DNA of 64,000 nt. Origin: Oceanispirochaeta sp. GTDB lineage: Bacteria > Spirochaetota > Spirochaetia > DSM-2461. The stretch covers positions 1 through 64,000 of the forward strand of contig CAXXXD010000003.1 of assembly GCA_963663385.2 (NCBI GenBank), read 5' to 3'. Both the position numbers and the translations under genes were made by a program. How positions within the stretch are numbered: position 1 is the stretch's first letter; the number at the start of each line of letters is the position of its first letter. Below are positions 1 through 20,163 of this stretch, piece by piece. The notes under the pieces were generated by a model, which searched no databases, had not been told where the DNA came from, and was given only the letters and a program-made list of their open reading frames with translations.

Positions 1-1279
1 ATATTCCGGATAAAGATAAGATCTGTGCCTGCGGAACAGAAAAGACCTGTATCGGTGAAGATGTTTCCGAGAGAGCAAAAATTATTCCGTCAAAAGTCGT
101 TGTTATTCAGGAACGTAGAAAAAAGTACTCCTGCAAGAATTGTGAAGGGACGACTCTTGATGAAGCTGCTGTACAGACCGCAGAAGGAGCAAAGCATCTG
201 GTCGCGGGCAGTATTGCCGATGAAAGCCTGCTCGCTTGGAGTATAAGCGAAAAGTTTGAGTTCGCTCTTCCTTTCTACAGGCAATCAAAACGGTTAAACC
301 AGATAGGCATACCGATCCCCCGGGCGACATTGAGCAATCTTACGATAAAATCGGCAACGGCATGTAAGCCTCTATATGATTTGCTGAAAGAAAACATTAA
401 ATCCGGTTCCATTATTAATGCCGATGAGACGAGAGTTCAGGTTCTAAAGGAACCGAAACGAAAAGCTTCAGATAAATCATGGATGTGGGTCTTTCTCAGA
501 GGAGATCCCGATAAAAAATGTGTCATATTTCAGTATGAGCAAGGCCGATCCCATGCAATTCCGTTGGATTTCTTGGAAAATTACTCTGGCTGGGTTCAAA
601 CTGATGATTTTGAGGCCTACCATACTGCCCGAAAAAAAGTTGATGGAGATATAAAGCATGTCTTATGCTGGGCCCATGCCAGAAGAAAGTTCTTCCAATA
701 TTGGGAATCAACCAAGAAAAAAGATGCAGAAGCAAAGCAAATTCTCGACCTGATAAAGGATCTGTTTGAACTGGAATCATTACGGGATAATTATTCGCTA
801 AAAGGGTTTCATAAACAGCGACAAAATAGAGCAGAACCGATACTAGATAAGTTACAGAAAAAACTGACGAAGCTTTATCCTCAAGTACCTCCTTCTTTAG
901 AGTTCGGTAAGGCGATGAAGTATACATTGAGCAACTGGGAGCAGTTGGTTCTATATCTGAAAAATCCTGTTTTGACTCCTTCGAACAATAGCGCTGAAAA
1001 TGCAATCAGACCCTTCGTAATCGGGAGAAAAAACTGGCTTTTTGCCGGAAGCCCGAAAGGTGCTGAATCATCGGCAATTCTGTACAGTCTCGTTGAATCT
1101 GCGAAGATGAACAATCTTCCAGTTTATGCTTACTTGTACTTTATCTTCCGGGAATTGCCCTGCTGTGAAAAACAGAGTGATTATGAAAAATTACTTCCCT
1201 ATAATTTAACTGCTGAAGATATTGCAATCTGATCCATCAGTCCTAAAATGCTGTCAATGTGGGAAGAATTACCGCTTAC
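1..1279 (+). mobile_element. IS66 family insertion sequence, right part (left end outside window)
   Basis: TnpC ORF followed by ...GAATTACCGCTTAC ending at 1279; its reverse complement begins GTAAGCGG, the typical IS66 terminus. Confidence 0.85.
3..1232 (+). CDS. tnpC: IS66 family transposase TnpC (5'-partial)
   Basis: Frame is open from position 3 (ICACG...YSCKNC zinc finger, LPFYRQ, PRATLSN) into ORF 330..1232 with ADET, CWAHARRKF, NNSAENAIRP and GRKNWLF motifs. Confidence 0.93.
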   Translation: MPDKDKICACGTEKTCIGEDVSERAKIIPSKVVVIQERRKKYSCKNCEGTTLDEAAVQTAEGAKHLVAGSIADESLLAWSISEKFEFALPFYRQSKRLNQIGIPIPRATLSNLTIKSATACKPLYDLLKENIKSGSIINADETRVQVLKEPKRKASDKSWMWVFLRGDPDKKCVIFQYEQGRSHAIPLDFLENYSGWVQTDDFEAYHTARKKVDGDIKHVLCWAHARRKFFQYWESTKKKDAEAKQILDLIKDLFELESLRDNYSLKGFHKQRQNRAEPILDKLQKKLTKLYPQVPPSLEFGKAMKYTLSNWEQLVLYLKNPVLTPSNNSAENAIRPFVIGRKNWLFAGSPKGAESSAILYSLVESAKMNNLPVYAYLYFIFRELPCCEKQSDYEKLLPYNLTAEDIAI

Positions 1280-4048: not shown

Positions 4049-5458
4049 TTAATGACTTGTATAGCGGGCAACAGCAGAGGCCAGCCGTTTTATTCCCTCT
4101 CGGATTTCATTGTCCGAAAGGGCTCCGAAACTGAGTACCAGGGTATCTCTGTGTGTTTCGGGATTCCCCGAATGCTGCGAAGCCCTTTCGCAATAGACTC
4201 CCTCTTTTTTCAGGATGGTATCGAAATCGGAATGAAAATCCAGACAGGGAAAGCGGACAGCCTGGTACTGTCCGCACATGATTCCCGGTAAATCGTACGG
4301 TTCTCTGATATACTGGTTGAGGGCCTGCCTTAAAATGTCGTGTTTCTTCCTGTATATTTTTTTTAACTGAAGGACATGACGTTCATAATAACCGCGCTCA
4401 AGGAACAGGGCCATGGCGGCCTGTTTGATCATGGATGTATAGTAGCCGGATTCGGTCATTCGGGTTTTAAAATCATCGACCAATGTTTCAGGAACCACCA
4501 GATAACCCAGTCTTATGGCGGGATACATGGTTCCGGAGAATGTTCCGATATGGACAACAATATCCGGAGCCAGCAACTGGAGGCTGCTGAGGGGACTGTG
4601 AGAGAAGAAAAACTCCGAATCATAGTCGTTTTCCAGAATGATCGCATCTCTATTCCTGACAGATTCCACCAGATGAATCCGTCTCTGTACGGGCATACAG
4701 TATCCCAGGGGATGATGATGGGACGGTGTGACATGAACGGCATCATAATTCTGCCCTAGCAGGAGATCTGTCCGTAATCCCTGCTCATCGACGGGAATGG
4801 GAACAAGATTGGTGCATCGGCTCTTTAGGGTTCCCGTGACATGATCCAGCAGGGGATCTTCAACAACAATGGTCCCTGTTTGCAGACATAGTACTTGTGA
4901 ACAGATGATGAGTGCCTGGCTGGTTCCATCAACTATGAATATCTGATCCGGTCTGCATTGGATGCCTTTGGCGCGATGAAGGTAGGTTTTCAGTTCATTC
5001 CTTAAGGAGGCTAAACCCTCTCTTTGGCCGTATTCCCAGTCCTCGTCAGGAGAATACAAAGCCGCATCGCGGAGAGTTTCCGCCCATTTTGATCTGGGAA
5101 AATGATTTACGGGAACTGCAGTCCGGAAAAATATCGTATCGGTTCTGTTTTTTTCCGAGCTCTTTCTCTGCAAGGATCTGGAGCCGGATTTATCGCGGTT
5201 AAAGTGATTCAGAACCGATCCGGAAGCCACAAACGTTCCCGAGCCCCTTCGGGGAACAAGATACCCTTCCGCTTCCAGCTGCTCATAAACATTCGTAACG
5301 AGATTTCTGGAAACACCCAGTTCAAGAGCCAGTTTCCGGCTGGAAGGAAGCTTGAAGTCGGGAGGAAGGGCTCCGGTTAGAATTAATTGCCGGAGACCTT
5401 CTGTTACTTGACGAAACAATGGTAGAGAAGATTCTTTATCAATGGGGATGTGAAGCAT
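4049..5458 (-). CDS. MocR/GabR-family regulator (GntR HTH + PLP aminotransferase domain)
   Basis: KLPSSRKLALELGVSRN HTH; VTPSHHHPLG, ILENDYDSEF, IGTFS, RLGY. Confidence 0.93.
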   Translation of the reverse strand: MLHIPIDKESSLPLFRQVTEGLRQLILTGALPPDFKLPSSRKLALELGVSRNLVTNVYEQLEAEGYLVPRRGSGTFVASGSVLNHFNRDKSGSRSLQRKSSEKNRTDTIFFRTAVPVNHFPRSKWAETLRDAALYSPDEDWEYGQREGLASLRNELKTYLHRAKGIQCRPDQIFIVDGTSQALIICSQVLCLQTGTIVVEDPLLDHVTGTLKSRCTNLVPIPVDEQGLRTDLLLGQNYDAVHVTPSHHHPLGYCMPVQRRIHLVESVRNRDAIILENDYDSEFFFSHSPLSSLQLLAPDIVVHIGTFSGTMYPAIRLGYLVVPETLVDDFKTRMTESGYYTSMIKQAAMALFLERGYYERHVLQLKKIYRKKHDILRQALNQYIREPYDLPGIMCGQYQAVRFPCLDFHSDFDTILKKEGVYCERASQHSGNPETHRDTLVLSFGALSDNEIREGIKRLASAVARYTSH

Positions 5459-7291: not shown

Positions 7292-7518
7292 AGACCCTAT
7301 TATAAAAACTATAATAAACGATTGGTAAAGAACTTAAAAAGTATTTCACTGATACATTTGTCATATCTGAGTTTATTAAAGGGTGTTATAATACTGGTAA
7401 GAAATCCGATATGTATTTCCGGCGGGATAACCATAAAAAAGAAATTGATTTGATTGTTGACTATGGAATAGATAAATTAGGCATTGGAATCAAATTAAGC
7501 AGGCATAGCCATTCTTAA
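7292..7518 (+). pseudogene. AAA ATPase (DUF4143) C-terminal remnant
   Basis: RPYYKNYNKRLVK / KYFTDT-FVISEFIK...MYFRRDNHKKEIDLIVD...IGIK; frameshifted and internally deleted. Confidence 0.7.
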
Positions 7519-7548
7519 AGTTATCCAGAATAAAGGAACAGAGAAAAA

Positions 7549-8394
7549 ATGAAATATTTACACGCTGATGTCTTCTCAAATAAATCCTTACAGGGAAACG
7601 GACTGACTATCATATTCACCGACAGCAACGATACAAATCAATTACAGGAAATAGCGAAAGAATTCAAACAATTCGAAACGGTCTTTATTTACGGAAAAGA
7701 AGCCGGCTATTATCCCATCAGAATATTTACAGTGGATGAAGAACTGGATTTTGCCGGTCACCCCATACTGGGGGCAGCAGCTGCCGTACTAAAAGAGACT
7801 GGGAGTCTCGACAGCAGAATCAAATTCAAAACAGGAAACAGAATCGTTGAAAACAGGGCAAGATGCCATAAAGGCTACTACTCGGTCATCATGAACCAGG
7901 GACAGCCTGACTATAAGGAAGTTGTCAGTCAGAAAAGCATCGATACAATAGTCCGGTCATTGAATCTTGTAAAATCCGAGCTGTCGGAGACCCTGCCCAT
8001 GGAAGTTGTCTCAACCGGACTGGATTACCTGATTATACCCGTAAAGGATGAGGAGTCACTGGCGAAATCAAGGATCCTGACAGATGACTTTGAAGAACAG
8101 TTAAGGGCGGTTTCGGCAAAATTCGTCTATCTGGTTAATCCTCAGACAATGGAGTGCCGGACCTGGGACAATCAGGGCCTTGTGGAAGATGTGGCCACCG
8201 GCAGCGCCGCGGGCCCTCTGTGCGCCTATTTAATCCGGCAGGGAAAACTGGGAATCGGTGAGAAAGTCCGAATCAGACAGGGAAAATACGCGGGAAGACC
8301 AAGTGAAATAACAGCCTGGATGGATACTGAGACATCGGATATCCATATTGAAGGGGATGTTAAGATACTGGTAGAAGGGGAGTTGAACCTGTAA
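7549..8394 (+). CDS. PhzF family isomerase/epimerase
   Basis: DVFS...GN, ETVF, RIFTVDEELDFAGHP, VSTG, EDVATGSAAG. Confidence 0.92.
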   Translation: MKYLHADVFSNKSLQGNGLTIIFTDSNDTNQLQEIAKEFKQFETVFIYGKEAGYYPIRIFTVDEELDFAGHPILGAAAAVLKETGSLDSRIKFKTGNRIVENRARCHKGYYSVIMNQGQPDYKEVVSQKSIDTIVRSLNLVKSELSETLPMEVVSTGLDYLIIPVKDEESLAKSRILTDDFEEQLRAVSAKFVYLVNPQTMECRTWDNQGLVEDVATGSAAGPLCAYLIRQGKLGIGEKVRIRQGKYAGRPSEITAWMDTETSDIHIEGDVKILVEGELNL

Positions 8395-8489
8395 ATCAAA
8401 AAGCTTGAAAAGTAATGCTTCCGGGGCTTGAAACACCTTGCCCCGATGTTCTGATAACGGTACGATTGGGTTTCTATTAGGAGCTTATT

Positions 8490-9779
8490 TTGGACTGGAT
8501 TCAAAACGTACCCGTTTTTGTACGGATGCTATCGTCTCTTCTGCTTATACTCATAATCAATCAGAAGACTAAAGTGCTGACCCTGGCTGTTCTGTGCGGC
8601 ACTGTACTTATGGGATTCTGGACGGGAAACAGCCTTCCTGTTCTTTTCAGCACCGCTGTTCATGCCGTTTTAAACTGGGATGCCCTGTTTCTGGCTCTAT
8701 CCATCGGTCTGATTATAACACTCAGTCACCTTATGGCTGCCAGAGGCGTCATGAATGACATGGTGGAATGGGTGACTTCCCGTATGCATACCCGCATATC
8801 CATGGCTGTCCTGCCGGCCATTATCGGTCTGCTGCCTATGCCCGGGGGCGCCCTGTTTTCCGCTCCCCTGGTCGATGACTGTGACACGGACCGGATCGTG
8901 GAAGCCGAGCGGAAGGCTGCTATCAATTTCTGGTACCGCCATATATGGGAGTTTTTCTGGCCCATCTATCCGGGGATTCTCCTGGCAATCGACATTACCG
9001 GTCTTCCCGTACTGACCTATATCCGAATCACATGGCCCCTGTCGCTTTTTGCCATAGGGGGAGGGTACCTTTTTCTTCTGCACAAAGTGAAAGGTTCCGT
9101 GAAAGGTCCGGACCGGAGTGAGCCTGCCGATAAAAAGGTCTCCCTGTTTCTACTGCTGCTCCCAGTTATCACCGTGCTGGTGATCTATACGCTGATTAAA
9201 ATCTTTCTTCCCGGCATAACCGATATCAGTAAATATCTGGCCATGTTTATCGGTCTGATCGGTTCCCTTGCGGTCCTGCAGATTCAGAAACCCGGACCAC
9301 TTAAGGAAATGTTTTCTGTAATGATTCAGCCAAAGACCCTTATTATGGTATTTCTCATCATTTCCATTAAACTCTATGGCGCTTATGTTGAATCCGCCGG
9401 GCCGGACGGCCGGTTTCTTATGGCAGTCATGGGAGATGAGCTGCAGTCCCTGGGGATTCCCATCTGGCTGACCCTGGCGTTTCTGCCTTTTATAACCGGT
9501 CTTACCATGGGAATCACCGTTGGACTGGTAGGAGCCAGTTTTCCTATTGTCGTGCAGCTGCTGGGACAGATGGATCCCTCCTTTTACAGCGCGGGTCTTC
9601 TTATTGCAGTGGCATCCGGCTGGCTGGGCATGATGCTGTCTCCGGTCCATGTCTGTTTTATTGTGACGAATCAGCATTTCAAAACAGGCCTGCTCAAGAG
9701 TTTCAGCCGGCTTATGGGTCCCTCTCTGGTTCTGACTCTGGGGGCGGTTTTTATGGCTATTCTGTATATTCTGCTGTAA
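8490..9779 (+). CDS. DUF401 family membrane protein
   Basis: IGLLPMPGGALFSAPLV, NFWYRHIWE, SPVHVC; many TM helices. Confidence 0.85.
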   Translation: MDWIQNVPVFVRMLSSLLLILIINQKTKVLTLAVLCGTVLMGFWTGNSLPVLFSTAVHAVLNWDALFLALSIGLIITLSHLMAARGVMNDMVEWVTSRMHTRISMAVLPAIIGLLPMPGGALFSAPLVDDCDTDRIVEAERKAAINFWYRHIWEFFWPIYPGILLAIDITGLPVLTYIRITWPLSLFAIGGGYLFLLHKVKGSVKGPDRSEPADKKVSLFLLLLPVITVLVIYTLIKIFLPGITDISKYLAMFIGLIGSLAVLQIQKPGPLKEMFSVMIQPKTLIMVFLIISIKLYGAYVESAGPDGRFLMAVMGDELQSLGIPIWLTLAFLPFITGLTMGITVGLVGASFPIVVQLLGQMDPSFYSAGLLIAVASGWLGMMLSPVHVCFIVTNQHFKTGLLKSFSRLMGPSLVLTLGAVFMAILYILL

Positions 9780-10860
9780 TAAGGGCGGGGGATTCGGAGC
9801 AGACTCTGTTTCTCCCGGTTTCTTTGGCCCTGTAAAGGGCATCATCGGCCAGGCCGATAAGCCGGGAAACTTCATTTTCCGGATAAAACTGATTGATCCC
9901 GAAACTGGCTGTCTGCCCAGGCACCCCGGGGAAACTGTAATCTTCTATTTTTACTCTCAGTTTCTCCGCCAGGTTCCGGGCCGATTCCAGATCCGTTTCA
10001 GGACAGATTACAAGGAATTCCTCGCCTCCCCACCGGCCGGCAATATCGGTTGATCTGATATTGTTCCGAATCAAATCGGCAAACCGGATTAATGTCTCAT
10101 CTCCGATCTGATGACCGAAGGTATCATTGACTCTTTTAAAATGATCTATATCCATCAGGATAACAGAAAATACAGAGCAGTATCTCCGGGCCCGCTCCGC
10201 TTCATCCATAAGAACCCTGTCCAGCCTCATCCGGTTATTGAGTCCCGTTAATTTGTCGGTTATGGATAACTGATATAAGGTCGTATTTTTTTCATTAACA
10301 TTTATCAGAGCCGTTTTCAGAAGGAGAGAGATTTTATACCCGAAAAATCCCATTGATCCCATAATAAGGCACATAAAGAAGAACAGCTGTATCAGTTCGG
10401 CCGGTGTATAATCGGAGCCCCAAATGTTCAGGGCGTACCGAAGGTAAAGGCCCAGGGTCCCGGTGATGAAATTGAGGAGAATCATATATTTCGCTTCTTT
10501 TCTCCGGAATGTAAATACGGAAAATAGAGAGATTATGGTATGGACGAAGAAACCCGTAAATACAAACAGATCCCCCGACATCCAGATGACAATCATTCCG
10601 AAACAGGACCCGAACAGTACATAGGTTTTGGCCGCTCTGATAATATTTCCCCTTTTCAGTGAACGGTAATTGAAAATGCTGAAAGTAAGGGCGGTGAGTA
10701 TGACGACTTCCTGGATAAGGGTTTTGGTAAAATCATCGAAAAAAAACCATGCCGCATTTATTGTCAGGGCAGATGAAATGGCTACGATCATGCTTTTTGT
10801 CGTCACAGAGAGTACGCTTCTGATATAGGCTTCCAGATTGGTATCGAGTTCCACCTTCAT
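9757..10860 (-). CDS. Membrane-bound diguanylate cyclase
   Basis: About 6 TM segments, then TDKLTGLNNR, DIDHFKRVNDTFGH, RSTD (I-site), RWGGEEF. Confidence 0.93.
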   Translation of the reverse strand: MKVELDTNLEAYIRSVLSVTTKSMIVAISSALTINAAWFFFDDFTKTLIQEVVILTALTFSIFNYRSLKRGNIIRAAKTYVLFGSCFGMIVIWMSGDLFVFTGFFVHTIISLFSVFTFRRKEAKYMILLNFITGTLGLYLRYALNIWGSDYTPAELIQLFFFMCLIMGSMGFFGYKISLLLKTALINVNEKNTTLYQLSITDKLTGLNNRMRLDRVLMDEAERARRYCSVFSVILMDIDHFKRVNDTFGHQIGDETLIRFADLIRNNIRSTDIAGRWGGEEFLVICPETDLESARNLAEKLRVKIEDYSFPGVPGQTASFGINQFYPENEVSRLIGLADDALYRAKETGRNRVCSESPALITAEYTE

Positions 10861-11039
10861 ATTAAGTAGCTATTATAAAGGAAAATAGAAAAATCACAAG
10901 TTCATTGAAGATCAAATGGGAAGTATAATCTGTTAATTTTACCTGAATATGACGGATGTCAGTTCAACTCCGGGAAGGGGCAGCCTTTTTATACCATAAG
11001 ACTGCCTTTTGCTGCAGAGCACTCTTCGGCGGGAGAGGT

Positions 11040-11777
11040 TTAATCTTTTTCGCTGCCCATAAATTCAGGGTAATGCTTTTCTCCGCATTCAGGGCAGACC
11101 CCGTGGCTGAAATCAATATCGGCTTCTCTGTTCAGATAGCTCTCCAGTGAATGCCACTTACCGTTTTTATCCCGGATCCTTTTGCAGAATGAGCAGATGG
11201 GGAGCATTTCGTTGAGGCGTCGTATCTCCCTTTGGTATACCTTCCTGCTTCGTTCATAACTGTACAGTATGTAAAAGGAAAATCCGTATACGATAAGAAA
11301 GGCAAAGCTTTCGAATACATTGTAGGCTACCGTAATAATGGATAACCGGGACAGAATAAACAGTATTATCAGGGATGAAATCTGAACAGCTACCCATTTC
11401 GCTCCCCTGCTTACACCCCGTGTAGAGATAAAAAGACCCGGAAACGCAATACACCAGTATATTCCCGTATTATATAATCCTCCATCCCAGTAGAGGTATA
11501 TGGACAGGAATATGACTAAAACATTTATTGTCAAAGCCGGAGCTGTATACTTTTTTTTGACGATAAGTATATAGATATTGGATATCAACGCAGTAAAACC
11601 AAGGATAATTTCCGGAAACCCTGCGTAATACTTTCCCGTTAACAGATTGACAATCCCGAAAGCGATAAGAAGCGAGCCGGTAATGATTGTGACGATTAAG
11701 GTTATTCTGTACCTCATACAGTCCTTCTCCGGTCCCTGATACCCGGGTTTATCATCTTTACGATTCTGTTTTTTCAT
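11040..11777 (-). CDS. Membrane sensor-like protein with C-terminal Cys-rich (CxxC...HGxCPxC) domain
   Basis: 5-6 TM helices, then LPICSFCKRIRD...W..LESY...FSHGVCPEC. Confidence 0.8.
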   Translation of the reverse strand: MKKQNRKDDKPGYQGPEKDCMRYRITLIVTIITGSLLIAFGIVNLLTGKYYAGFPEIILGFTALISNIYILIVKKKYTAPALTINVLVIFLSIYLYWDGGLYNTGIYWCIAFPGLFISTRGVSRGAKWVAVQISSLIILFILSRLSIITVAYNVFESFAFLIVYGFSFYILYSYERSRKVYQREIRRLNEMLPICSFCKRIRDKNGKWHSLESYLNREADIDFSHGVCPECGEKHYPEFMGSEKD

Positions 11778-11838
11778 CTACCTATAGTAAATGTCAAACT
11801 CCTGTACCGCAATGAGAACCTTGGTACTTTTTTCAGAT

Positions 11839-12831
11839 TCAGTATTGCACCAGTATGGCCGATGAGTAATCCCCGGCATGGGAAAATCCGGCTATACAAA
11901 CCAGATTCCCCTTTTGAATAATATCTTTCTCCAGGGCTTCCGACAGATTAATCGGCATGGCGGCACTGAAGAGATTCCCGTATTTTTCAAATGTATGGTA
12001 CAGCTTTTCTTCAGGGAGCCCGACAAATTCCCTCCAGTTTCTTAAAAATACAGGATTCGGCTGGTTTGTGATCAGTACATCAATGTCCTGAAGTTTTTTT
12101 CCGTTTTTCTCACAGACCTCTTTTATCCGCTCGGGTACAGAGCGGTTCCCCCGGGAGATGATTTTCATAATTCTGGTCTGATTAAACTCAATGATTCCCA
12201 TCCTGTCGGAAGGTTCCCACCAGTAACAGCCGTCGGGTCTCTCTATATTCATATCCGATGCAAATTCTCCATGAGACCGGGTCGCTGATTTCAGAAGGCG
12301 GCCTCCGGTTTCCTGTTCCGATGCCATAAGCAGAGTAACGCCGCAGCCGTCTCCGGGTACAACAGACTGCTGTTTCTTTCTGTTCTGAGGGTGTCCGAAA
12401 ATCTTCCCCGCAGAGGTTTGGGTATTCCCAATCAGGGCGTATCGGATGTTCCGGGACCGCATCAGGATATCCGCCAGTTCCAGCATGTTCACAAAGGACG
12501 TGCAGCCGCTGTTATGGATATCGTAAATATAACGGGGATGCGATTCAACCGCATAGGCCCATCCTGCTCCCGGACCTGTAAAGGGGATATCGAGCATGGC
12601 TGAATTACTCAGGAAAAGGTCAACTTCAGAGGCATTCACCTTATGCTTTTCAAGCAGCTTCCGTGTTGCCTCTGTCAGGTATTTAAGGGCTGTCTCATCC
12701 TTTTCGCAGTGCCGTCTCTCCCTTGTCCCCCTGAACATGGGATTGGTATCAACCTGTTCACTGCCGAAATAACTGTTGGGGATCACTTTTTCCGGCAGAC
12801 AGGTTTCAACTCCCCTGATTATAATGTTCAC
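11839..12831 (-). CDS. 3-oxoacyl-ACP synthase III-like (FabH-fold) protein
   Basis: GTRERR, NSGCTSF (catalytic Cys), PGDGCG, TNQPN (in place of HQAN), YGN; GTG start overlaps upstream stop (GTGA). Confidence 0.88.
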   Translation of the reverse strand: MNIIIRGVETCLPEKVIPNSYFGSEQVDTNPMFRGTRERRHCEKDETALKYLTEATRKLLEKHKVNASEVDLFLSNSAMLDIPFTGPGAGWAYAVESHPRYIYDIHNSGCTSFVNMLELADILMRSRNIRYALIGNTQTSAGKIFGHPQNRKKQQSVVPGDGCGVTLLMASEQETGGRLLKSATRSHGEFASDMNIERPDGCYWWEPSDRMGIIEFNQTRIMKIISRGNRSVPERIKEVCEKNGKKLQDIDVLITNQPNPVFLRNWREFVGLPEEKLYHTFEKYGNLFSAAMPINLSEALEKDIIQKGNLVCIAGFSHAGDYSSAILVQY

Positions 12832-13478
12832 GGATTTCTTCCTTCTTCCCCGGTATAGGGGCCAAGGGGCAGGTCTCTGCTGCAGCGGTACTCCAGGATT
12901 CTTTTGAGATTTTCCAGTTCTGCCTTATGCCCGGCATAAAAGAAGTCCCATAATTCGCCCACCCATATCCGTCCCTTTTCCGACAGTTCCGGATAAGGAT
13001 TCTTATGGTAATGCGGATGCCTGCAGTTTTGCCAGAAGACAACGGAACCCGGTTTGCCCAGAACAGGACCGGCAGGGACAATCCTGTTCAGGTAGACCAT
13101 CCACAGATCCTCACCCTGATCCCAGGCACAGTGATAATCCACGGTCATGGCTTCTCTGTTGGACTTTACGGAGCAGTATATGTCTGTGTTTTCCACAACC
13201 AGGTCTGTACCCTTATAAAGGTTGTCTCCGACAGCATGGTAGTCTCTGGTGCTGTATGTCCATTCGGATAAACTATGGATATTTGACATATAATCGAATA
13301 CTTCAAGAGGCGGGCAGTCAATGTATGTCTGAACGGTACAGTAGGATCCGAATATTTCATCATGGGGATATACGGTATGGGTGGATTCCATCATATCGGC
13401 CTGGAACTGACCCGCCGGATAGGATTCCTGCCTTTTTACACCGGGAATCCGTTCTATGTCCCTGCTTTCGGTTTTCAT
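12828..13478 (-). CDS. SRPBCC (START/polyketide cyclase-fold) protein
   Basis: IDCPPLEVFDYMSNIHSLSEW N-terminal signature; C-terminal helix ELENLKRILE; ATGA overlap with upstream gene. Confidence 0.82.
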   Translation of the reverse strand: MKTESRDIERIPGVKRQESYPAGQFQADMMESTHTVYPHDEIFGSYCTVQTYIDCPPLEVFDYMSNIHSLSEWTYSTRDYHAVGDNLYKGTDLVVENTDIYCSVKSNREAMTVDYHCAWDQGEDLWMVYLNRIVPAGPVLGKPGSVVFWQNCRHPHYHKNPYPELSEKGRIWVGELWDFFYAGHKAELENLKRILEYRCSRDLPLGPYTGEEGRNP

Positions 13479-15130
13479 GTTTTTGCATCTCCTTTGTAAA
13501 GTGGCAGATAGGGGGGCAGATCATTATCACCAATCCTGTCATCAATATTAATGGATATCAGCACAGGGCCGTCCGAAAGGCGTGTCTCATTAAAGACCTT
13601 TTCTAGTTCCTCTGCACAATTTACATCACAGGATGGTAAACCGGGAAACATTCTATTAAATCCGTCTCCCAGGTTTGCCGAAGTAAAATCATTGGAACCG
13701 CTTAGTGTATGGAAGAAGCCGGATTCCCGGTAACTGCACATTTTATGTCCGTTGTTATTGAATATAATGTATGTAATCGGCAGTTTCATTTCAAGAGCGG
13801 TGTGGATCTCAAAACCGTTCATATAGAAAGAACCGTCACCGGCAATGAGAATCCCCTTATGCCCGTTGGCTTTTGCCGCACCAATGACAGAACCGAAACT
13901 GTATCCCATCCCGGCCATTCCCAATGCAATTCTGAAGGTGTTAGAGCTTCTCACTCTTAGATTATGGAGGGCATATGCTCCTGTCACACCCGCATCAACA
14001 GCTATATTCATATCAGGCTCTATCTCTCTTTCAATTACCTTCAGCATCCGGACGTATGGATTGGCTGCCTCATTGGAGAAGGAGAGGCCCGTCCGCTTCT
14101 CCGTTTTTACGGTTTGAAGGTGGCGTTTTAAAAACTGGCAACCCGATTCAACAGATTCGCTGACATGATAATACGTCCCTTTAAAAAGGGGGGGCTTTCC
14201 CAGAATGAGGATATTCTTCTCTGCGTCCTCTATCCCGTAAAGATCGTTTTCATTAAGTTTTGCGCCTGCCACGATCAGGGTTCCGGCTTCTTTTACGGCT
14301 TTAAAAGCGGAAGGATTACCCATGATTCCGATGGATCCGGCATATAAAGGACTGAAATTGTCAAAAGCCGATTTCCCGTCGGGAGTCGTCACCACAGGAC
14401 AGTCCAGTTTTTCAGCAAGAGCCTGAAGCCCGGCCGCTGCTTTCTGACCGGACACACCGCTGCCTGCCACTATGGTGAAAGGCCCGGCGGGCAGACAGGT
14501 CTTATCCATCATTACCCCGGTTTCTGCAGAAGCAGGCGAGGGGATTACCGGCAGAGGCGCCTCAACAGGCCGGGCAAACAGGTTTTGGGGGATCATAAGA
14601 ACAGCGGGACCTTCCCTGTTTATCACCAGTTTCTGATAAATTTCATTCAGGATCCGGGGTAGCTCTTCGGGGGTCTTCAGAATTTTACAGTACCGTGAAA
14701 CACAGCCTAGAATAGCAGCCAGATCGGGAGTCCCGTTTTGGCCGCTGGTCTCCTGAAAGGCTCCATGGAGTTCCCTGTTATTCTCGGGTTGCCCTGCCAG
14801 AACGAGGACAGGGCTCTTTTCGGTATAAGCTTCTCCGAGAGCCGGAACGATATTTAGGGCTGCTCCCCCGGAGGTGGTTGCCATCACTCCCAGTACTTTT
14901 CCGCATTTTGCATAGGAATCGGCCATGGCGGCGGCCGCGAATTCATGCTTTGCCGTAACAAGCGAGACAGGACCGGCTGATGCGTGAATGGAATGGAAGA
15001 AATGTTCAATCCTGCCGCCGGATACCCCGAATACTGTATCAACTTCAAGAGCGTTTATAAATCCGATCAGATATTCGGAGACATTCATTGTTCTTTCTTT
15101 TAAAAACTGTAAATCGTTCATTCCATTCAT
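13475..15130 (-). CDS. Thiamine diphosphate-dependent enzyme (acetolactate synthase-like); likely start 15088
   Basis: VFGVSGG, KHEFAA (catalytic Glu), TTSGG, GMAGMG, GDGSF...FNN ThDP motif. Confidence 0.92.
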   Translation of the reverse strand: MNGMNDLQFLKERTMNVSEYLIGFINALEVDTVFGVSGGRIEHFFHSIHASAGPVSLVTAKHEFAAAAMADSYAKCGKVLGVMATTSGGAALNIVPALGEAYTEKSPVLVLAGQPENNRELHGAFQETSGQNGTPDLAAILGCVSRYCKILKTPEELPRILNEIYQKLVINREGPAVLMIPQNLFARPVEAPLPVIPSPASAETGVMMDKTCLPAGPFTIVAGSGVSGQKAAAGLQALAEKLDCPVVTTPDGKSAFDNFSPLYAGSIGIMGNPSAFKAVKEAGTLIVAGAKLNENDLYGIEDAEKNILILGKPPLFKGTYYHVSESVESGCQFLKRHLQTVKTEKRTGLSFSNEAANPYVRMLKVIEREIEPDMNIAVDAGVTGAYALHNLRVRSSNTFRIALGMAGMGYSFGSVIGAAKANGHKGILIAGDGSFYMNGFEIHTALEMKLPITYIIFNNNGHKMCSYRESGFFHTLSGSNDFTSANLGDGFNRMFPGLPSCDVNCAEELEKVFNETRLSDGPVLISINIDDRIGDNDLPPYLPLYKGDAKT

Positions 15131-15437
15131 ACCGATTATATCCGATTGATATCACAATATAAACAATCACTCCTTTATGCATGATCTTTCAGGACATCCG
15201 CAGTAAGCTGTTGTGCCAGGATTGGTAAAAAGTTAAACAAATATACTATCGGAATTTGTTTCTTTTCATTTTTTCAATACAATAAACTTATATTAGAAAA
15301 TCCGGTATAAGCAATATTACCTATTTTTCAAAATTTATTTGGAAATGACCAATTGGAATTAAGGGTTAAACAGAATGTCCTGTCCTGCTTTAATAATGTT
15401 TTCCGGCAGGTTTCCTTTTCTTATATATAATTAATAT

Positions 15438-16028
15438 ATGGCCGGTAAGCATAATCGTATGGAGGAGGAAAGCCTGGAGGGGTATCTCTCTGAAACCCGG
15501 GCTCTGCTTTTGCAAACCGAACAGTATGTTATCCGGAACACAAAGATCTACGATCAGTATGATGAGGCTTTTCTGCAGCTGCGGGAGATTCTGGAGGCCG
15601 GGGAGGATCAGAGGGAAGAGATTGAAAAAGTCCGGGTCTATATTTCAAAAATCCGGAAGTCCCTCAGGCTGAAGGGGTATAATTTCAAGATCCGTCCCAT
15701 GGATCTGAAGGTGGACGGTTTCCGAAATGAAGAGTCCGCCGCTCAGGGATTCAAACGCTGCGTGGTTGTTCTGACAGAGGAGGGGGATGTCCTTTTTATG
15801 GCCGGAACCGAAAACCATAAGCAGATGCAGAAAGCCCTGGAGGGCAAAGTTGCTGCCAGCGGGAGGGACGCAGTCAGAGAGGTCCACCATCTCTGGTTCA
15901 ACTGGGTGGACCGTGTGCTGATCCTGTCCGGGGCCGCATCGGAGTCACCGGAGAATTTCGATCGGTTTGAAGAGTACGCCGCTTCCCATAAAGAGTACCT
16001 GCTGAAGAAGCTGATGAAGATCAGTTAA
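15438..16028 (+). CDS. Hypothetical protein
   Basis: 196-aa ORF with natural composition filling the gap; no motif recognised. Confidence 0.75.
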   Translation: MAGKHNRMEEESLEGYLSETRALLLQTEQYVIRNTKIYDQYDEAFLQLREILEAGEDQREEIEKVRVYISKIRKSLRLKGYNFKIRPMDLKVDGFRNEESAAQGFKRCVVVLTEEGDVLFMAGTENHKQMQKALEGKVAASGRDAVREVHHLWFNWVDRVLILSGAASESPENFDRFEEYAASHKEYLLKKLMKIS

Positions 16029-16106
16029 TTTTCTCCGGATTCAGTCTGTTTAAATATGTTAAATATAGTTTTCCTGTCGTTCATCGGATATTTATGTTTT
16101 ACCTTT

Positions 16107-17216
16107 TCAACAGTCTGTAGATTTCCTTATAACAGGGTATCCCTGGAGGGTTACAGTCCGGGGCCCCAGGTTATTATCCTTGATCCGGGAAACTAAAAGG
16201 CGCACAACTTCATCCGCAATCTGATTACAGGGCTGATGGTAGGTTGTAAGAGGTGTTTTAAGAATTTCTCCGTATTTGATATCGTCAAATCCGCATAACC
16301 TTATATCTTCCGGTATACTGTATCCCAGTTCTGTTATTGTCTGAAGCAGATCGGCTGCGGTTTCGTCATTGCCGCAAATCAGGTTTGCAGCCATTCTCTC
16401 CTTAATCATTTTTTGTACGCTTGCTTTATCATTCGGATGGATCTCATGAATCCAGGACTGCTGGGGGGGGATCCCATACTCAACGAGTGCCGACCGATAC
16501 CCCTCAAGCCTGAGCTTCATGGATGCCGCAGAAAAGGGTTTGTGTATAAAATCTACTCTTGTGCAGCCCTGTTTCAGATAGATTTCTGTCATTTGATATG
16601 CTCCGAGGTAGTGGTCCATGCTTACAAGGTCATAGCTGCTTCTATCGGGAAAGGTGGTATAGTCGGAATCCAGAAGAATGACAGGAATACCGGCTTTGTC
16701 CAGAATATTGAGTATCACCCTGTTTATTTCGAGCTTGTTTACCCGGTGTTCCAAAGGAGTAAAGATGACAGCCGAGACTTTATGATCCTTATATTTACGG
16801 GCTATCTGAATTAAATCATCGGGGGAGCTTATCCTGCTTGAACTTTGCAGTCCTCCGCTCCATAGCAGGGAAAAATGGTTTGAGCCTGACAGCTCGGCAA
16901 TCCTTGCGCAAATGGGTTCGAATATGGCCCCCTGACCCAGGTCCGGGATAATAAGGCCTACCATTCTGTTCAATGCCAGACCCAAATTCTCATTTTTAGG
17001 GGAAACATAGCTGCCCGAACCGGTTATCCGATAGATCAACCCTTCATCTTTCAAAGTGTTCAGGGCACGGGTAACAGTCGGTCTGGAGACTCCGTACTGA
17101 TTTGCCAGTTCTGTTTCGGTGGGAAGTTTGTCTCCCGGATCGAGGCTGCCGTTCTGCAGCATTTTATGTAATTCCCGGTAAATTGTCAGGTATTTTAAAT
17201 TCTGGAACTGGCTCAT
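16107..17216 (-). CDS. GntR-HTH / LacI-type sugar-binding regulator (AraR-like)
   Basis: KLPTETELANQYGVSRPTV; ICGND, PEDIRLCGFDD, LTT..QP. Confidence 0.92.
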   Translation of the reverse strand: MSQFQNLKYLTIYRELHKMLQNGSLDPGDKLPTETELANQYGVSRPTVTRALNTLKDEGLIYRITGSGSYVSPKNENLGLALNRMVGLIIPDLGQGAIFEPICARIAELSGSNHFSLLWSGGLQSSSRISSPDDLIQIARKYKDHKVSAVIFTPLEHRVNKLEINRVILNILDKAGIPVILLDSDYTTFPDRSSYDLVSMDHYLGAYQMTEIYLKQGCTRVDFIHKPFSAASMKLRLEGYRSALVEYGIPPQQSWIHEIHPNDKASVQKMIKERMAANLICGNDETAADLLQTITELGYSIPEDIRLCGFDDIKYGEILKTPLTTYHQPCNQIADEVVRLLVSRIKDNNLGPRTVTLQGYPVIRKSTDC

Positions 17217-17458
17217 TTTTTAATCGTAGGATCCTCTTTAAATAGTTAATTGTTGCACAGTATAAACAAATACTCACCCGCTTGGGGGAATTTTTTTTTA
17301 ATTCTAATTCAGTTTTAATATTTTTAACAAGTATATAACAGATCGTTTTCTTATGCTTTACAGATTGTTTACAAATAATTTGCACATTTAAAAAAGCTGT
17401 GATACTATGAAATCACAAAAAACAGACAGAATGTTTTGTCAAATTACGGAGGAGTTTT

Positions 17459-18565
17459 ATGAAAAGAATTTTATTGCTGAGTCTGATACTCTGCACAGTG
17501 GCGTTTTCTGTAGCTGCAGAAGGGCAAAAGGAGGCTGAGAAGAATGAAACGGTTCAAATCGGGGCTCTTATAAGGAATCTGGATGATCAGTTTTTAAATG
17601 ATTATACCAAGTATCTCGAAGCCAATGCTGCCGAAAAAAATGTAAAGCTGAAAGTGATGGATGCTCATAGCGATCTGGCCACCCAGCTGGATCAGATGAA
17701 CACTCTTTTAACCCAGGGAATCAAGTATTTTGTAGTTGTTCCTGCTATAAGTGAAGGATCGGAACAGATTGCGGAAGCTATTGCTGCCAGGAATGGTGGC
17801 GCTGCTTTCTCCAATACCCAGCCTACACTGAAAGCTCTTCAGACAGGTAAGGAGTTTTACCTTGCCTCATCTCCCGAGTCGGTTGCCGGGGAAATCCAGG
17901 CTCAGATAATTGATGATTACTTTAAGAAGAATCCCGGAAAGCTGGGAGAGGGGAAGAGTATTAATGCTCTCATGCTGCTTGGACAGCTCGGTCACCCTGC
18001 TCAGGTATACAGAACAGAAGCTGTTCTGGCTACTTTAAAAGACATGGGATATACCGTTAATATTATTGCCAAGGACACTGCCAACTGGCAGCCGGATGAA
18101 GCTCAGGCGAAGATGGATGCCTGGTTGACAGCTTACAAAGGGAAATTCAACGTAGTTATTACAAATAATGACGCTATGGCCCTTGGTGCAGTCGAGTCCA
18201 TGATGACAGCAAAATATGTGGATGATCCTTCTGATGTCACCAAAGATACTGATAACGACGGAACCGTATTGAAAGTGCCTGTTCTGGGAGTAGACGCCAC
18301 ACAGGTAGCTCTGAAATCCATGTCGGAAAACAAATTGTATGCCACTGTACTTCAGGATGCGGAGGGGCAGGCTTCGACCGCTTTCGAATTGGCTTATAAT
18401 ATTGCTGTTAACGGATCAGCCCAGGGAGTAACCGCATGGGGAATCGAAGCGTTAAGCGCCCCCATCGCCGAGGCTCCGGCGAATGATCCTTCGGTTGTAA
18501 GTCAGTGCTACCTTGTCCCGTTTAAAGCTGTAACTAAAGAGAATTACCAGTCTTTTATGAAGTAA
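17459..18565 (+). CDS. Sugar ABC transporter substrate-binding protein (MglB-like)
   Basis: Signal peptide; GQLGHP, ANW, NNDAMALGA, GVDA, ATVLQDA. Confidence 0.88.
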   Translation: MKRILLLSLILCTVAFSVAAEGQKEAEKNETVQIGALIRNLDDQFLNDYTKYLEANAAEKNVKLKVMDAHSDLATQLDQMNTLLTQGIKYFVVVPAISEGSEQIAEAIAARNGGAAFSNTQPTLKALQTGKEFYLASSPESVAGEIQAQIIDDYFKKNPGKLGEGKSINALMLLGQLGHPAQVYRTEAVLATLKDMGYTVNIIAKDTANWQPDEAQAKMDAWLTAYKGKFNVVITNNDAMALGAVESMMTAKYVDDPSDVTKDTDNDGTVLKVPVLGVDATQVALKSMSENKLYATVLQDAEGQASTAFELAYNIAVNGSAQGVTAWGIEALSAPIAEAPANDPSVVSQCYLVPFKAVTKENYQSFMK

Positions 18566-18576
18566 CTGTAACCATT

Positions 18577-18607
18577 TCCGGGGGGCATTGAAATCCCCCG
18601 GATTTTT
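18577..18607 (+). terminator. Intra-operon stem-loop after SBP gene
   Basis: TCCGGGGG...CCCCCGGA followed by TTTTT. Confidence 0.6.
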
Positions 18608-18630
18608 AATACAAAAAATATGAGGTATTC

Positions 18631-20163
18631 ATGGACGGACCCTATGTTCTTGAAATCAAAAATATAACAAAGTGTTTTCCGGGTGTAAAAGCCCTGGATA
18701 ATGTTTCCTTAAATGTAAAATCCGGCACTGTTCATGCACTGATGGGGGAGAACGGTGCCGGAAAATCTACCCTGATGAACTGCCTTTTCGGTATCTACAA
18801 AATAGATGAAGGGGAGTTTTTTCTGAACGGGGAAAAAGCGGCTTTTCATTCAACCCAGAATGCTCTGGAAGCCGGGGTATCCATGATTCATCAGGAATTG
18901 ATGAATGTTCCCGACAGGTGTGTCAAACAAAATCTCTGGCTGGGACGGGAACCGGTCAGAAAAGCGGGCCCCCTGAAATTCATTGATCATAGAAGGATGC
19001 ACAAGGATACCCTTGATCTGATGGCAAAGCTGGAAATGGACATTGATCCGGATCAGCCAATGCGGTCCCTTTCCATCTCATTGCAGCAGGCATGCGAGAT
19101 TGCCCGGGCTGTTTCCTATAACGCCTCTGTGGTTGTCATGGATGAGCCCACTTCTTCCCTTTCTGAAAAGGAGGTTAATCATCTTTTCAGGATAATTGAC
19201 GATTTGAAGTCTCAGGGAGTCGCTATTATCTATATTTCCCATAAAATGGATGAGATCTTTCAGATTTCTGATGAAATATCGGTTATGAGAGACGGGAAAA
19301 TGATAGGCACATTCCCGACGGAATCGCTTGATGAAGATCTGTTGATCAAGCATATGGTCGGGCGGGAAAATGCCAAGATTTTTCCCTATCTAAATAAACC
19401 GGGGGACGAAACCGTTCTATCGGTCGAGAACCTGACATCTTCCGATTCAACATCTTTCAGGGATATCTCCTTTGAATTGAAACGAGGGGAAATTCTGGGC
19501 ATCGGAGGTCTGGTTGGAGCCCAGAGAACAGAACTTGTCGAAGCTGTTTACGGTTTAAGAAAAACCTTGTCCGGTACAATCCGGATTAAGGATAAAATAA
19601 TATTAAAAGCCAACCCTCATGAGTCAATATCCCGGGGGATGGCCTTTATTACTGAAGACAGGAGAGGTTCCGGGATCTTTCCTCTACTGGATATTACGAT
19701 GAATACGGCCATGGCTTCATTGGGAAAATTTCTCAGCACGTATGGTTTTCTTAAACATAGGGATATCAGAAAAGATACCCTGAGACTTAATGAATCGCTC
19801 AAAACAAAAACACCCGGGATGAGTGCTTTTATCCAGAATCTATCGGGAGGAAATCAGCAGAAGGTTCTAATCGGACGCTGGCTGCTGACTGAGCCGGATA
19901 TTCTCATTATGGATGAGCCGACCCGGGGAATCGATGTGGGAGCCAAATTTGAAATTTATACAATTATCGCCGAGCTGGTGAAGCAGGGAAAATCCATCAT
20001 CATGGTATCTTCAGAAATGATGGAGCTTTTGGGAATGTCCCATCGTATCATGGTTTTATGCAATGGACGACATACCGGTACACTGGATCGTTCAGAAGCT
20101 GATCAGGAGAAAATCATGAAACTCGCTTCACGCTTTACAGAAGGAGAAGAACATGGCTTTTAA
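18631..20163 (+). CDS. mglA: Sugar ABC transporter ATP-binding protein (MglA-like)
   Basis: FPGVKALD, GENGAGKST, MDEPT, LSGGNQQK, DEPTRGIDVGAK. Confidence 0.9.
   Translation: MDGPYVLEIKNITKCFPGVKALDNVSLNVKSGTVHALMGENGAGKSTLMNCLFGIYKIDEGEFFLNGEKAAFHSTQNALEAGVSMIHQELMNVPDRCVKQNLWLGREPVRKAGPLKFIDHRRMHKDTLDLMAKLEMDIDPDQPMRSLSISLQQACEIARAVSYNASVVVMDEPTSSLSEKEVNHLFRIIDDLKSQGVAIIYISHKMDEIFQISDEISVMRDGKMIGTFPTESLDEDLLIKHMVGRENAKIFPYLNKPGDETVLSVENLTSSDSTSFRDISFELKRGEILGIGGLVGAQRTELVEAVYGLRKTLSGTIRIKDKIILKANPHESISRGMAFITEDRRGSGIFPLLDITMNTAMASLGKFLSTYGFLKHRDIRKDTLRLNESLKTKTPGMSAFIQNLSGGNQQKVLIGRWLLTEPDILIMDEPTRGIDVGAKFEIYTIIAELVKQGKSIIMVSSEMMELLGMSHRIMVLCNGRHTGTLDRSEADQEKIMKLASRFTEGEEHGF

Follow-up and report, generated by a model that had tools for sequence, protein, structure and literature searches.

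The Triad and Its Genomic Setting

The window considered here is a 64,000-nucleotide stretch of an Oceanispirochaeta sp. genome (contig CAXXXD010000003.1). The element of interest, termed the triad below, is a set of three co-oriented genes on the minus strand that encode, in this order, a thiamine diphosphate (ThDP)-dependent enzyme (P0001), a protein with the SRPBCC fold (P0002), and an enzyme resembling β-ketoacyl-acyl carrier protein synthase III (KAS III) (P0003) (Table 1). The stop codon of the first gene and the start codon of the second share the sequence ATGA (13475–13478), and the stop codon of the second and the GTG start of the third share GTGA (12828–12831). Upstream of the triad, the GC content is 0.344 in the bin 15000–15499, compared with 0.40–0.54 in the remaining bins. 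The initial annotation of this DNA had described three coupled genes behind an AT-rich region, and the coordinates of the open reading frames (ORFs) and the sequence agree with that description. A sigma-70-like −35/−10 pair on the minus strand at 15163–15135 (TTTATA-17-TATAAT, 10 of 12 matches) is a candidate promoter; this is only a suggestion because the scan for promoters and terminators as a whole did no better than chance (11 sites against 7.7 ± 2.8 expected).

ORFs were scanned between 330 and 32749, and no gene for ilvN, ilvC, an acyl carrier protein (ACP), plsX/fabD, a CoA ligase, or an ammonia lyase was found there, as the initial annotation had also stated; neither a prenyltransferase nor a P450 gene was found in this interval. 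Housekeeping counterparts exist elsewhere in the genome: contig C1 carries fabH-fabD-fabG as a cluster, C2 carries both another FabH-like gene and acetohydroxyacid synthase (AHAS)-like paralogues, and C3 carries acpP, so that the ThDP and KAS genes of the triad are additional copies and acyl-ACP is available. The GC content of the triad is 0.487, that of the contigs is 0.457–0.471, and the base composition gives no sign of a recent transfer of the triad.

Table 1. Coordinates and assignments of the triad and its upstream region.
Feature	Position	Strand	Description	Basis
ThDP-dependent carboligase, P0001	13475..15130	-	551 aa, ATG start; counterpart of CqsB3/NzsH	Pfam, motifs, tree
SRPBCC/Bet v1-fold cyclase, P0002	12828..13478	-	216 aa, ATG start; homologue of carbazole synthase CqsB2/NzsI	phmmer, AlphaFold2, Foldseek
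KAS III-like condensing enzyme, P0003	11839..12831	-	330 aa, GTG start; counterpart of CqsB1/NzsJ	Pfam, FabH alignment, tree
AT-rich intergenic region	15131..15437		separates the triad from the divergent gene 15438-16028	

A Homologue of the Carbazole Synthase CqsB2

No Pfam family was found for P0002. A phmmer search of the PDB matched its residues 29–199 to CqsB2 of Streptomyces exfoliatus (6ipv_A; 6IPV/6IPW) with an E-value of 2.9e-48 and 167.6 bits, while the remaining matches listed were designed repeat proteins, each aligned over one short segment. An AlphaFold2 model based on 27 sequences (pLDDT 85, pTM 0.85) again had 6ipv_A as its best Foldseek match (E 9.4e-18, TMq 0.70), with other proteins of the Bet v1 fold next.

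In the review by Kobayashi and Kuzuyama (PMC7466098), the likely catalytic residues of CqsB2 are Glu105, Tyr144, Tyr172, His206, and Glu209. According to a HMMER alignment, Y144, Y172, H206, and E209 correspond to Y129, Y157, H184, and E187 of P0002, and these four positions are invariant in 81 of 81 proteins of the window's own type (window-type, the window included). Glu105 corresponds to Asp92; this position is occupied by Asp in 80 of the 81 window-type proteins, by Asn in one, and by Glu in all three proteins of the Cqs type. Since both Asp and Glu occur there among the 50%-identity representatives of the superfamily, the change is treated as conservative. By its phmmer match, P0002 is a clear homologue of CqsB2.

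The initial annotation had taken the triad for a candidate undescribed pathway and had named a match to a characterised cluster among the findings that would speak against this; because of the CqsB2 homology and the matching set of three genes, the triad maps to a known type of cluster. The idea of an unknown pathway can thus be replaced by a concrete prediction, namely, a catechol or quinone of the carbazole type that derives from indole.

The Characterised Cassette and a Proposed Route

The same three enzyme families are encoded side by side in the clusters for carquinostatin (CqsB3/CqsB1/CqsB2) and neocarazostatin (NzsH/NzsJ/NzsI), and further Streptomyces counterparts are CbzD/F/E and ChlCz2/3/5. 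According to PMC7466098, indole-3-pyruvate is made by the aminotransferase CqsB7/NzsD, after which the ThDP enzyme forms an acyloin-type α-hydroxy-β-keto acid. The KAS III-like CqsB1/NzsJ then carries out a decarboxylative condensation of this acid with 3-hydroxybutyryl-ACP to give an unstable indole intermediate, from which CqsB2/NzsI, needing no cofactor, forms ring A of the carbazole, in a proposed mechanism where the electron-rich C2=C3 bond of the indole acts as the nucleophile. The review also reports that CqsB1 accepts 3-hydroxybutyryl-CoA in place of the ACP thioester, that FabD and the phosphopantetheinyl transferase are borrowed from primary metabolism, and that homologous three-gene clusters exist in S. 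cattleya, Sorangium cellulosum, and Scytonema. Acetyl-ACP has been proposed as the acyl donor for carbazomycin (in the chlocarbazomycin cluster paper); the acyl donor, being 3-hydroxybutyryl-ACP or -CoA in one case and acetyl-ACP in the other, therefore varies among the known carbazole pathways.

Judged by these relationships between sequences, the triad is fairly likely to be a complete, independent version of the cassette of three ring-building enzymes that, in its characterised members, makes the carbazole nucleus. By homology, we infer the following substrates, order of steps, and product. In a first step, P0001 would join an arylpyruvate, most likely indole-3-pyruvate, to pyruvate, the 2-oxo acid presumably being supplied by a housekeeping aminotransferase. 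In a second step, P0003 would load an acyl group from an acyl-ACP or acyl-CoA of primary metabolism onto Cys110 and would then condense it with the decarboxylating keto acid. In a third step, P0002 would take the unstable product and close and aromatise a new six-membered ring, yielding a 1-alkyl-2-methyl carbazole-3,4-diol or o-quinone, or a close analogue. The likely product is thus a catechol or o-quinone with fused aromatic rings, and a carbazole is the most likely of these. Sorazolons are carbazoles from Sorangium and would fit a carbazole product outside Streptomyces.

Much of the mechanism suggested in the initial annotation is retained in this route: an acyloin-type ThDP step, a KAS condensation with a host acyl thioester, and a cyclisation by the SRPBCC protein all have precedents in the characterised homologues (PMC7466098). 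What is not retained is the butenolide or furanone outcome; since the middle protein is a CqsB2 homologue, a fused aromatic ring of the carbazole type is likelier.

Conservation and Distribution of the Cassette

Of 917 candidate relatives of P0002, 837 have E ≤ 0.001, and the top 120 are 53–89% identical to it. In species-representative genomes, at least 583 stretches encode such a relative, and the best 80 of these were taken as the related loci. The three genes occur together in 73 of the 80, across seven named phyla, which is far more than chance would give and which bears out the earlier view of a coupled, specialised-metabolite unit outside the ilv and fab contexts. The gene order is ThDP-SRPBCC-KAS (T-S-K), as in the window, in 59 loci and SRPBCC-KAS-ThDP (S-K-T) in 14. 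The other seven comprise two loci cut by contig ends, four Nocardia loci in which the KAS gene lies on the other strand 3–5 kb away (in one of them, no ThDP gene was found), and one orphan cyclase gene. The orphan (L012, 8001–8603), from an Oligoflexia metagenome-assembled genome (MAG), is flanked by 8 kb in each direction in which neither a ThDP nor a KAS homologue occurs.

The hosts include, among the Actinomycetota, Streptomyces, Micromonospora, Nocardia, and Mycobacteriaceae, and, beyond them, Myxococcota, Bdellovibrionota, Planctomycetota, Pseudomonadota, Acidobacteriota, and two spirochaete MAGs. The cassette is present in hundreds of species, among which Mycobacteriaceae, Nocardia, Streptomyces, Myxococcota, Bdellovibrionota, and Planctomycetota are represented, together with a few spirochaetes. 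The sole frequent fourth gene encodes a class I/II aminotransferase and is no more than 5 kb away from the SRPBCC gene in 34 of the 80 loci; this count comes from a tblastn recount, because picking the longest ORFs greedily misjudges genes in high-GC loci. The linked aminotransferase is HisC-like in three of the four loci scanned and of another type in the Bacteriovorax locus L004. Such a partner fits a 2-oxo acid derived from an amino acid, as with CqsB7/NzsD. Cytochrome P450 genes occur in about seven of the 80 loci.

In several loci from Mycobacteriaceae (L058–L081; for example, L058, 2107–10650), the cassette and a HisC-like aminotransferase gene come right after the genes for an extracytoplasmic function (ECF) sigma factor and a zf-HC2 anti-sigma factor. 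This arrangement suggests that the cassette is under sigma-factor control there. In at least five mycobacterial loci, it also lies downstream of secY-adk.

Nearer to the source, the P0002 gene was not found in 40 relatives of the source genome, of which 10 share its genus, 14 its family, and 16 its class. A comparison at the DNA level of 7500–19000 with 14 relatives gave scattered matches to flanking genes and none over the triad; divergence within the genus is too great for an insertion site to be located. In the three spirochaete loci (the window, L002, and L037), the triad stands alone and has different neighbours in each. Because the middle gene was not found in these 40 relatives and the spirochaete triads stand alone among different neighbours, the distribution is patchy and the cassette behaves as a module. 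The spirochaete copies, having the three core genes only, would make a compact construct for heterologous expression and offer a route to the question, raised below, of asparagine in place of histidine in the condensing enzyme.

The relation of the window-type cassette to the Cqs/Nzs type can be seen within a single genus. In a sample of 301 Streptomyces genomes, 30 hold a relative of P0002. In 27 of these, it is of the window type (218–284 bits, 48–58% identity), and in three, it scores about 167 bits with 43–47% identity, which is the score of P0002 against CqsB2 itself. This group of three is of the Cqs/Nzs type, since the cyclase of one of them (L116) is identical to the CqsB2 chain at 177 of 180 positions. 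Conversely, window-type cyclases from Streptomyces (L011) and Mycolicibacterium (L058) score 169.7 and 166.7 bits against CqsB2 and are as distant from it as P0002 is. The characterised carbazole enzymes of Streptomyces are thus the smaller branch, found in 3 of the 301 genomes, as against 27 with a window-type cassette.

The ThDP Enzyme

The initial annotation had called P0001 a minimal ThDP enzyme, a description that does not fit: all three standard Pfam domains (TPP_enzyme_N, M, and C) are present at normal length, with the GDG...NN ThDP motif at residues 431–460 and the conserved Glu63 in KHEF. Its true start is probably Met15 (ATG at 15088), since homologues align only from residue 13–16 onward. 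NCBIfam acetolactate-synthase models score far below their cut-offs (e.g., TIGR00118, 174.5 against 538 bits).

In a tree containing E. coli IlvB and IlvI and two paralogues from the source genome as the outgroup, all cassette ThDP enzymes form one clade (support 100, branch length 1.28). Within it, one subclade (100) holds the Cqs-type enzymes and the ThDP enzymes of three S-K-T loci. In these three loci (L014, L022, and L027), the cyclase and the KAS are of the window type, but the ThDP enzyme comes from the Cqs-like subclade; parts of the cassette have therefore been recombined between lineages. Gene order was considered as a marker of the clades and dropped, as the cbz table lists the ThDP enzyme, cyclase, and KAS consecutively and its lettering may not follow transcription.

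The solved structures nearest to P0001 are BbmA (153 bits) and CsmA (103 bits). BbmA was considered as a member of the cassette family and set aside, a Micromonospora member of the family scoring only 196 bits against it.

The Condensing Enzyme

P0003 has the Pfam domains ACP_syn_III (PF08545) and ACP_syn_III_C (PF08541), and two FabH models of NCBIfam score below their cut-offs (108.6 against 249 bits and 92 against 292 bits). In the KAS tree, both types of cassette enzyme form one clade (100) against a small outgroup of three FabHs, namely, that of E. coli and two of the source genome, and the types are sisters within this clade (99 and 100). The comparison with IlvB and FabH called for by the initial annotation thus places the ThDP and KAS enzymes of the cassette apart from AHAS and FabH (100 each).

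The catalytic triad of E. coli FabH consists of Cys112, His244, and Asn274. Residues at these positions were read from an alignment with E. coli FabH for 79 members of the window-type clade, the window counted. The position of C112 is Cys in 79 of 79; that of H244 is Asn in 77, Asp in one, and a gap in one; and that of N274 is Asn in 77. P0003 itself has Cys110-Asn256-Asn286. The same contrast is found in Streptomyces, where all 27 window-type loci have the motif TNQPN and the three Cqs-type loci (L115–L117) have THQPN. The large branch is therefore characterised by a family-wide change in the catalytic triad of its condensing enzyme. A search of the open literature, which does not cover subscription papers, found no report on the window-type clade or its Asn triad. 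Besides the review, the papers returned dealt with Streptomyces clusters, with NzsH as a chemoenzymatic tool, and with Streptomyces sp. MA37. The literature on carbazole enzymes, in a search not aimed at spirochaetes, gave no title on them.

Another question is whether the condensing enzyme and the cyclase act as a pair. A prediction of the complex between P0003 and P0002 scored 0.40, against 0.02 for the best of three controls. Among 157 solved complexes, 116 attained that mark, as did 2 of 215 mismatched pairs; only 18 of the 157 did so with a score of 0.60 or under, a range that includes both of the mismatched pairs that passed. The prediction runs share at least 52% of their contacts, and the pLDDT of the partner is at least 84. 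These models lend weak support to a physical contact between the two proteins. Natural fusions of a KAS III with an SRPBCC protein also exist (P0133, P0176, P0218, P0264, and P0267), one of which carries an SDR domain as well. They agree with the view, given in PMC7466098, that CqsB1 and CqsB2 must work in concert, their intermediate rearranging spontaneously. The fusion P0133 has the Cqs-type His and Glu. In a case listed under P0178, a ThDP C-terminal domain is joined to a cyclase fragment in one protein.

Probable Carbazole Formation and Its Alternatives

The trees and the cyclase homology can be summarised by saying that, by its sequence, the triad stands alone in its genome and belongs to a large clade that is sister to the characterised carbazole cassette. 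Its likeness to the Cqs/Nzs systems lies in a cyclase that is homologous over the full core and that keeps the Tyr, Tyr, His, and Glu residues, in KAS and ThDP enzymes that are the nearest relatives of the window's in the trees, and in the aminotransferase partners frequent in related loci. It differs in belonging to the sister clade, in its Cys-Asn-Asn rather than Cys-His-Asn KAS, in the Asp that replaces Glu105 of the cyclase, in a ThDP enzyme from a separate subclade, and in a host that is not an actinomycete. Since the cassette lies in the sister clade of the characterised enzymes, the statement that it works like the Cqs/Nzs enzymes is better supported than the statement that it is a member of their orthologue groups.

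Several observations weigh against carbazole formation by the window-type cassette. In a maximum-likelihood tree of 90 cyclases, the three Cqs-type proteins are split from the 87 window-type proteins with a support of 100, and P0002 is only 41–45% identical to the former. In the ThDP tree, the T-S-K enzymes, including P0001, form a second subclade (100) apart from the Cqs-type enzymes, to which P0001 is 27–29% identical. P0003 has Cys-Asn-Asn where FabH and all three Cqs-type KAS enzymes have the catalytic His; because Asn replaces this His, the condensation step of the window-type KAS may differ from that of the Cqs type. Near the triad, no dedicated ACP, second KAS III, or aminotransferase gene was found among the ORFs scanned, and tblastn found no aminotransferase gene of the cassette-linked kind in the whole window. 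Indolepyruvate as the substrate is itself an assumption. Finally, the window-type clade could not be tied to a known carbazole producer with a Polyangiaceae query (L044), as no named Sorangium appeared among the best 120 of 1080 matches. The search for IOR_alpha as a sign of an indolepyruvate pool was uninformative (best match 502 bits, below the 650.9 cut-off; control positive in 13 of 14 genomes).

Within the cyclase tree, the window pairs with a Spirochaetia MAG (L002; 96), and this pair stands beside a mostly Bdellovibrionota group with a support of only 85. The cyclase of a Treponema MAG (L037) is not grouped with L002 and has a long branch within a Bdellovibrionota-rich group. The trees hint, with modest support, at separate acquisitions among the spirochaete copies.

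How far do these observations go? Because the Cys-Asn-Asn KAS and the separate ThDP subclade are both family-wide and set the clade apart, it is conceivable, if somewhat unlikely, that the window-type clade makes no carbazole at all, owing to a different coupling or to a 2-oxo acid other than an indole one. If so, a still unknown scaffold would be the product of a 3.3-kb cassette shared by hundreds of species.

One form of this possibility keeps the three-step logic and changes the 2-oxo acid (to phenylpyruvate, 4-hydroxyphenylpyruvate, or an aliphatic acid), so that the ring would not be a carbazole but, for example, a naphthalene-type or monocyclic catechol or quinone. The subclade of the T-S-K ThDP enzymes, which is apart from the S-K-T enzymes as well as from the Cqs-type ones, is consistent with this, as is the divergence of the ThDP enzymes across the family, with 26–37% identity (the near relative L002 apart) compared with 48–68% for the cyclases. 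The linked aminotransferases, moreover, belong to more than one subfamily. However, the residues assigned to the indole C2=C3 mechanism of CqsB2 are kept, and the S-K-T loci, in combining window-type S and K with a Cqs-like T, suggest that the intermediates are interchangeable. We regard a change of substrate as unlikely.

Another possibility is that P0003 O-acylates the acyloin, as XclB/XclC or CybF do, with the SRPBCC protein assisting in the formation of a butenolide- or furanone-type lactone. Such a reaction is kept as a rival because the loss of His accompanies acyl transfer in other enzymes: the paulomycin paper (PMC4425429) reports that CerJ-like enzymes without the first conserved His carry out acyl transfer rather than decarboxylative condensation and names XclB/XclC as ester-forming. 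Furthermore, indole esters arise by spontaneous rearrangement from what CqsB1 itself produces (PMC7466098). Against lactone formation stand the cyclase, a CqsB2 homologue with its ring-closing residues kept, the grouping of the KAS with the Cqs-type enzymes in a tree that has three FabHs as its only outgroup, and the failure to find a furanolide-type ammonia lyase or CoA ligase among the ORFs scanned nearby. Lactone formation is, on balance, quite improbable.

That the triad consists of spare copies of primary-metabolism genes (an acetolactate synthase and a FabH) or of an inactive remnant is scarcely credible: Pfam, it is true, sees only generic TPP and KAS III domains, but P0001 and P0003 fall far below every NCBIfam AHAS and FabH cut-off, a branch with a support of 100 splits P0001 from E. 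coli IlvB/IlvI and from the genome's own paralogues, housekeeping fab (on another contig) and AHAS-like genes exist elsewhere in the genome, the frames are intact with the catalytic Cys, the ThDP motif, and the cyclase residues kept, the genes are linked in 73 of 80 loci, and the middle one was not found in the 40 relatives.

Other Systems with Related Enzymes

The initial annotation had chosen CybE/CybF, DarB/DarA, and StlD/StlC as comparators; the carbazole enzymes are probably closer, and the NCBIfam model for StlD/DarB (NF005293) gives P0003 only 15.8 bits against a cut-off of 450.

The scytonemin enzymes ScyA and ScyC resemble the triad in combining a ThDP acyloin synthase with a cyclase that comes after it. 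P0002 weakly matches the N-terminus of ScyC (NF035924; E 8.6e-7, 28.6 against 400 bits, over the N-terminal 75 profile positions only), and P0001 matches a ScyA-related model far below its cut-off (147.4 against 1000 bits). The route through ScyA and ScyC is not known to include a KAS III step, and ScyC, at about 312–320 aa, has two SRPBCC-like halves; the NCBIfam model of ScyC, with 312 positions, fits this length.

In the xenocyloin (XclA with XclB/XclC) and cyanobacterin or furanolide (CybE with CybF) systems, a ThDP acyloin synthase is likewise combined with one or more acylating KAS III-like enzymes. Their products are esters or lactones, and they are not known to require an SRPBCC cyclase; by this description they differ from the triad.

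The TcmN aromatase/cyclase has the Bet v1-like fold and is among the Foldseek matches of P0002 (2rez, 3tvq, and 2rer). It differs in its identity to P0002, which is 11–12%, and in its substrates, which are ACP-bound poly-β-keto chains. A parallel between CqsB2 and TcmN is also drawn in PMC7466098.

Neighbouring Genes

The triad is flanked by a gene for a membrane GGDEF diguanylate cyclase (9757–10860, minus strand) and, divergently, by a gene whose 196-aa product matches no family above threshold (15438–16028, plus strand). Neither recurs beside the triad in the 80 related loci. Further away, a gene for a MocR-type GntR-aminotransferase regulator (4049–5458, minus strand) and one for a PhzF-like protein (7549–8394, plus strand) show no linkage to the cassette in other genomes. 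An IS66-family transposase gene (330–1232, plus strand), whose match begins at profile position 42, lies close to where contig C3 begins, at a distance of about 10 kb from the triad. Directly downstream of the triad, a gene at 11040–11777 (minus strand) encodes a membrane protein with a sub-threshold match to MASE6 (26.2 against 27.4 bits) and a Cys-rich C-terminal tail (CxxC ... CxxC); a paralogue with 68% identity at the DNA level is located at G000:C4:746409-746844.

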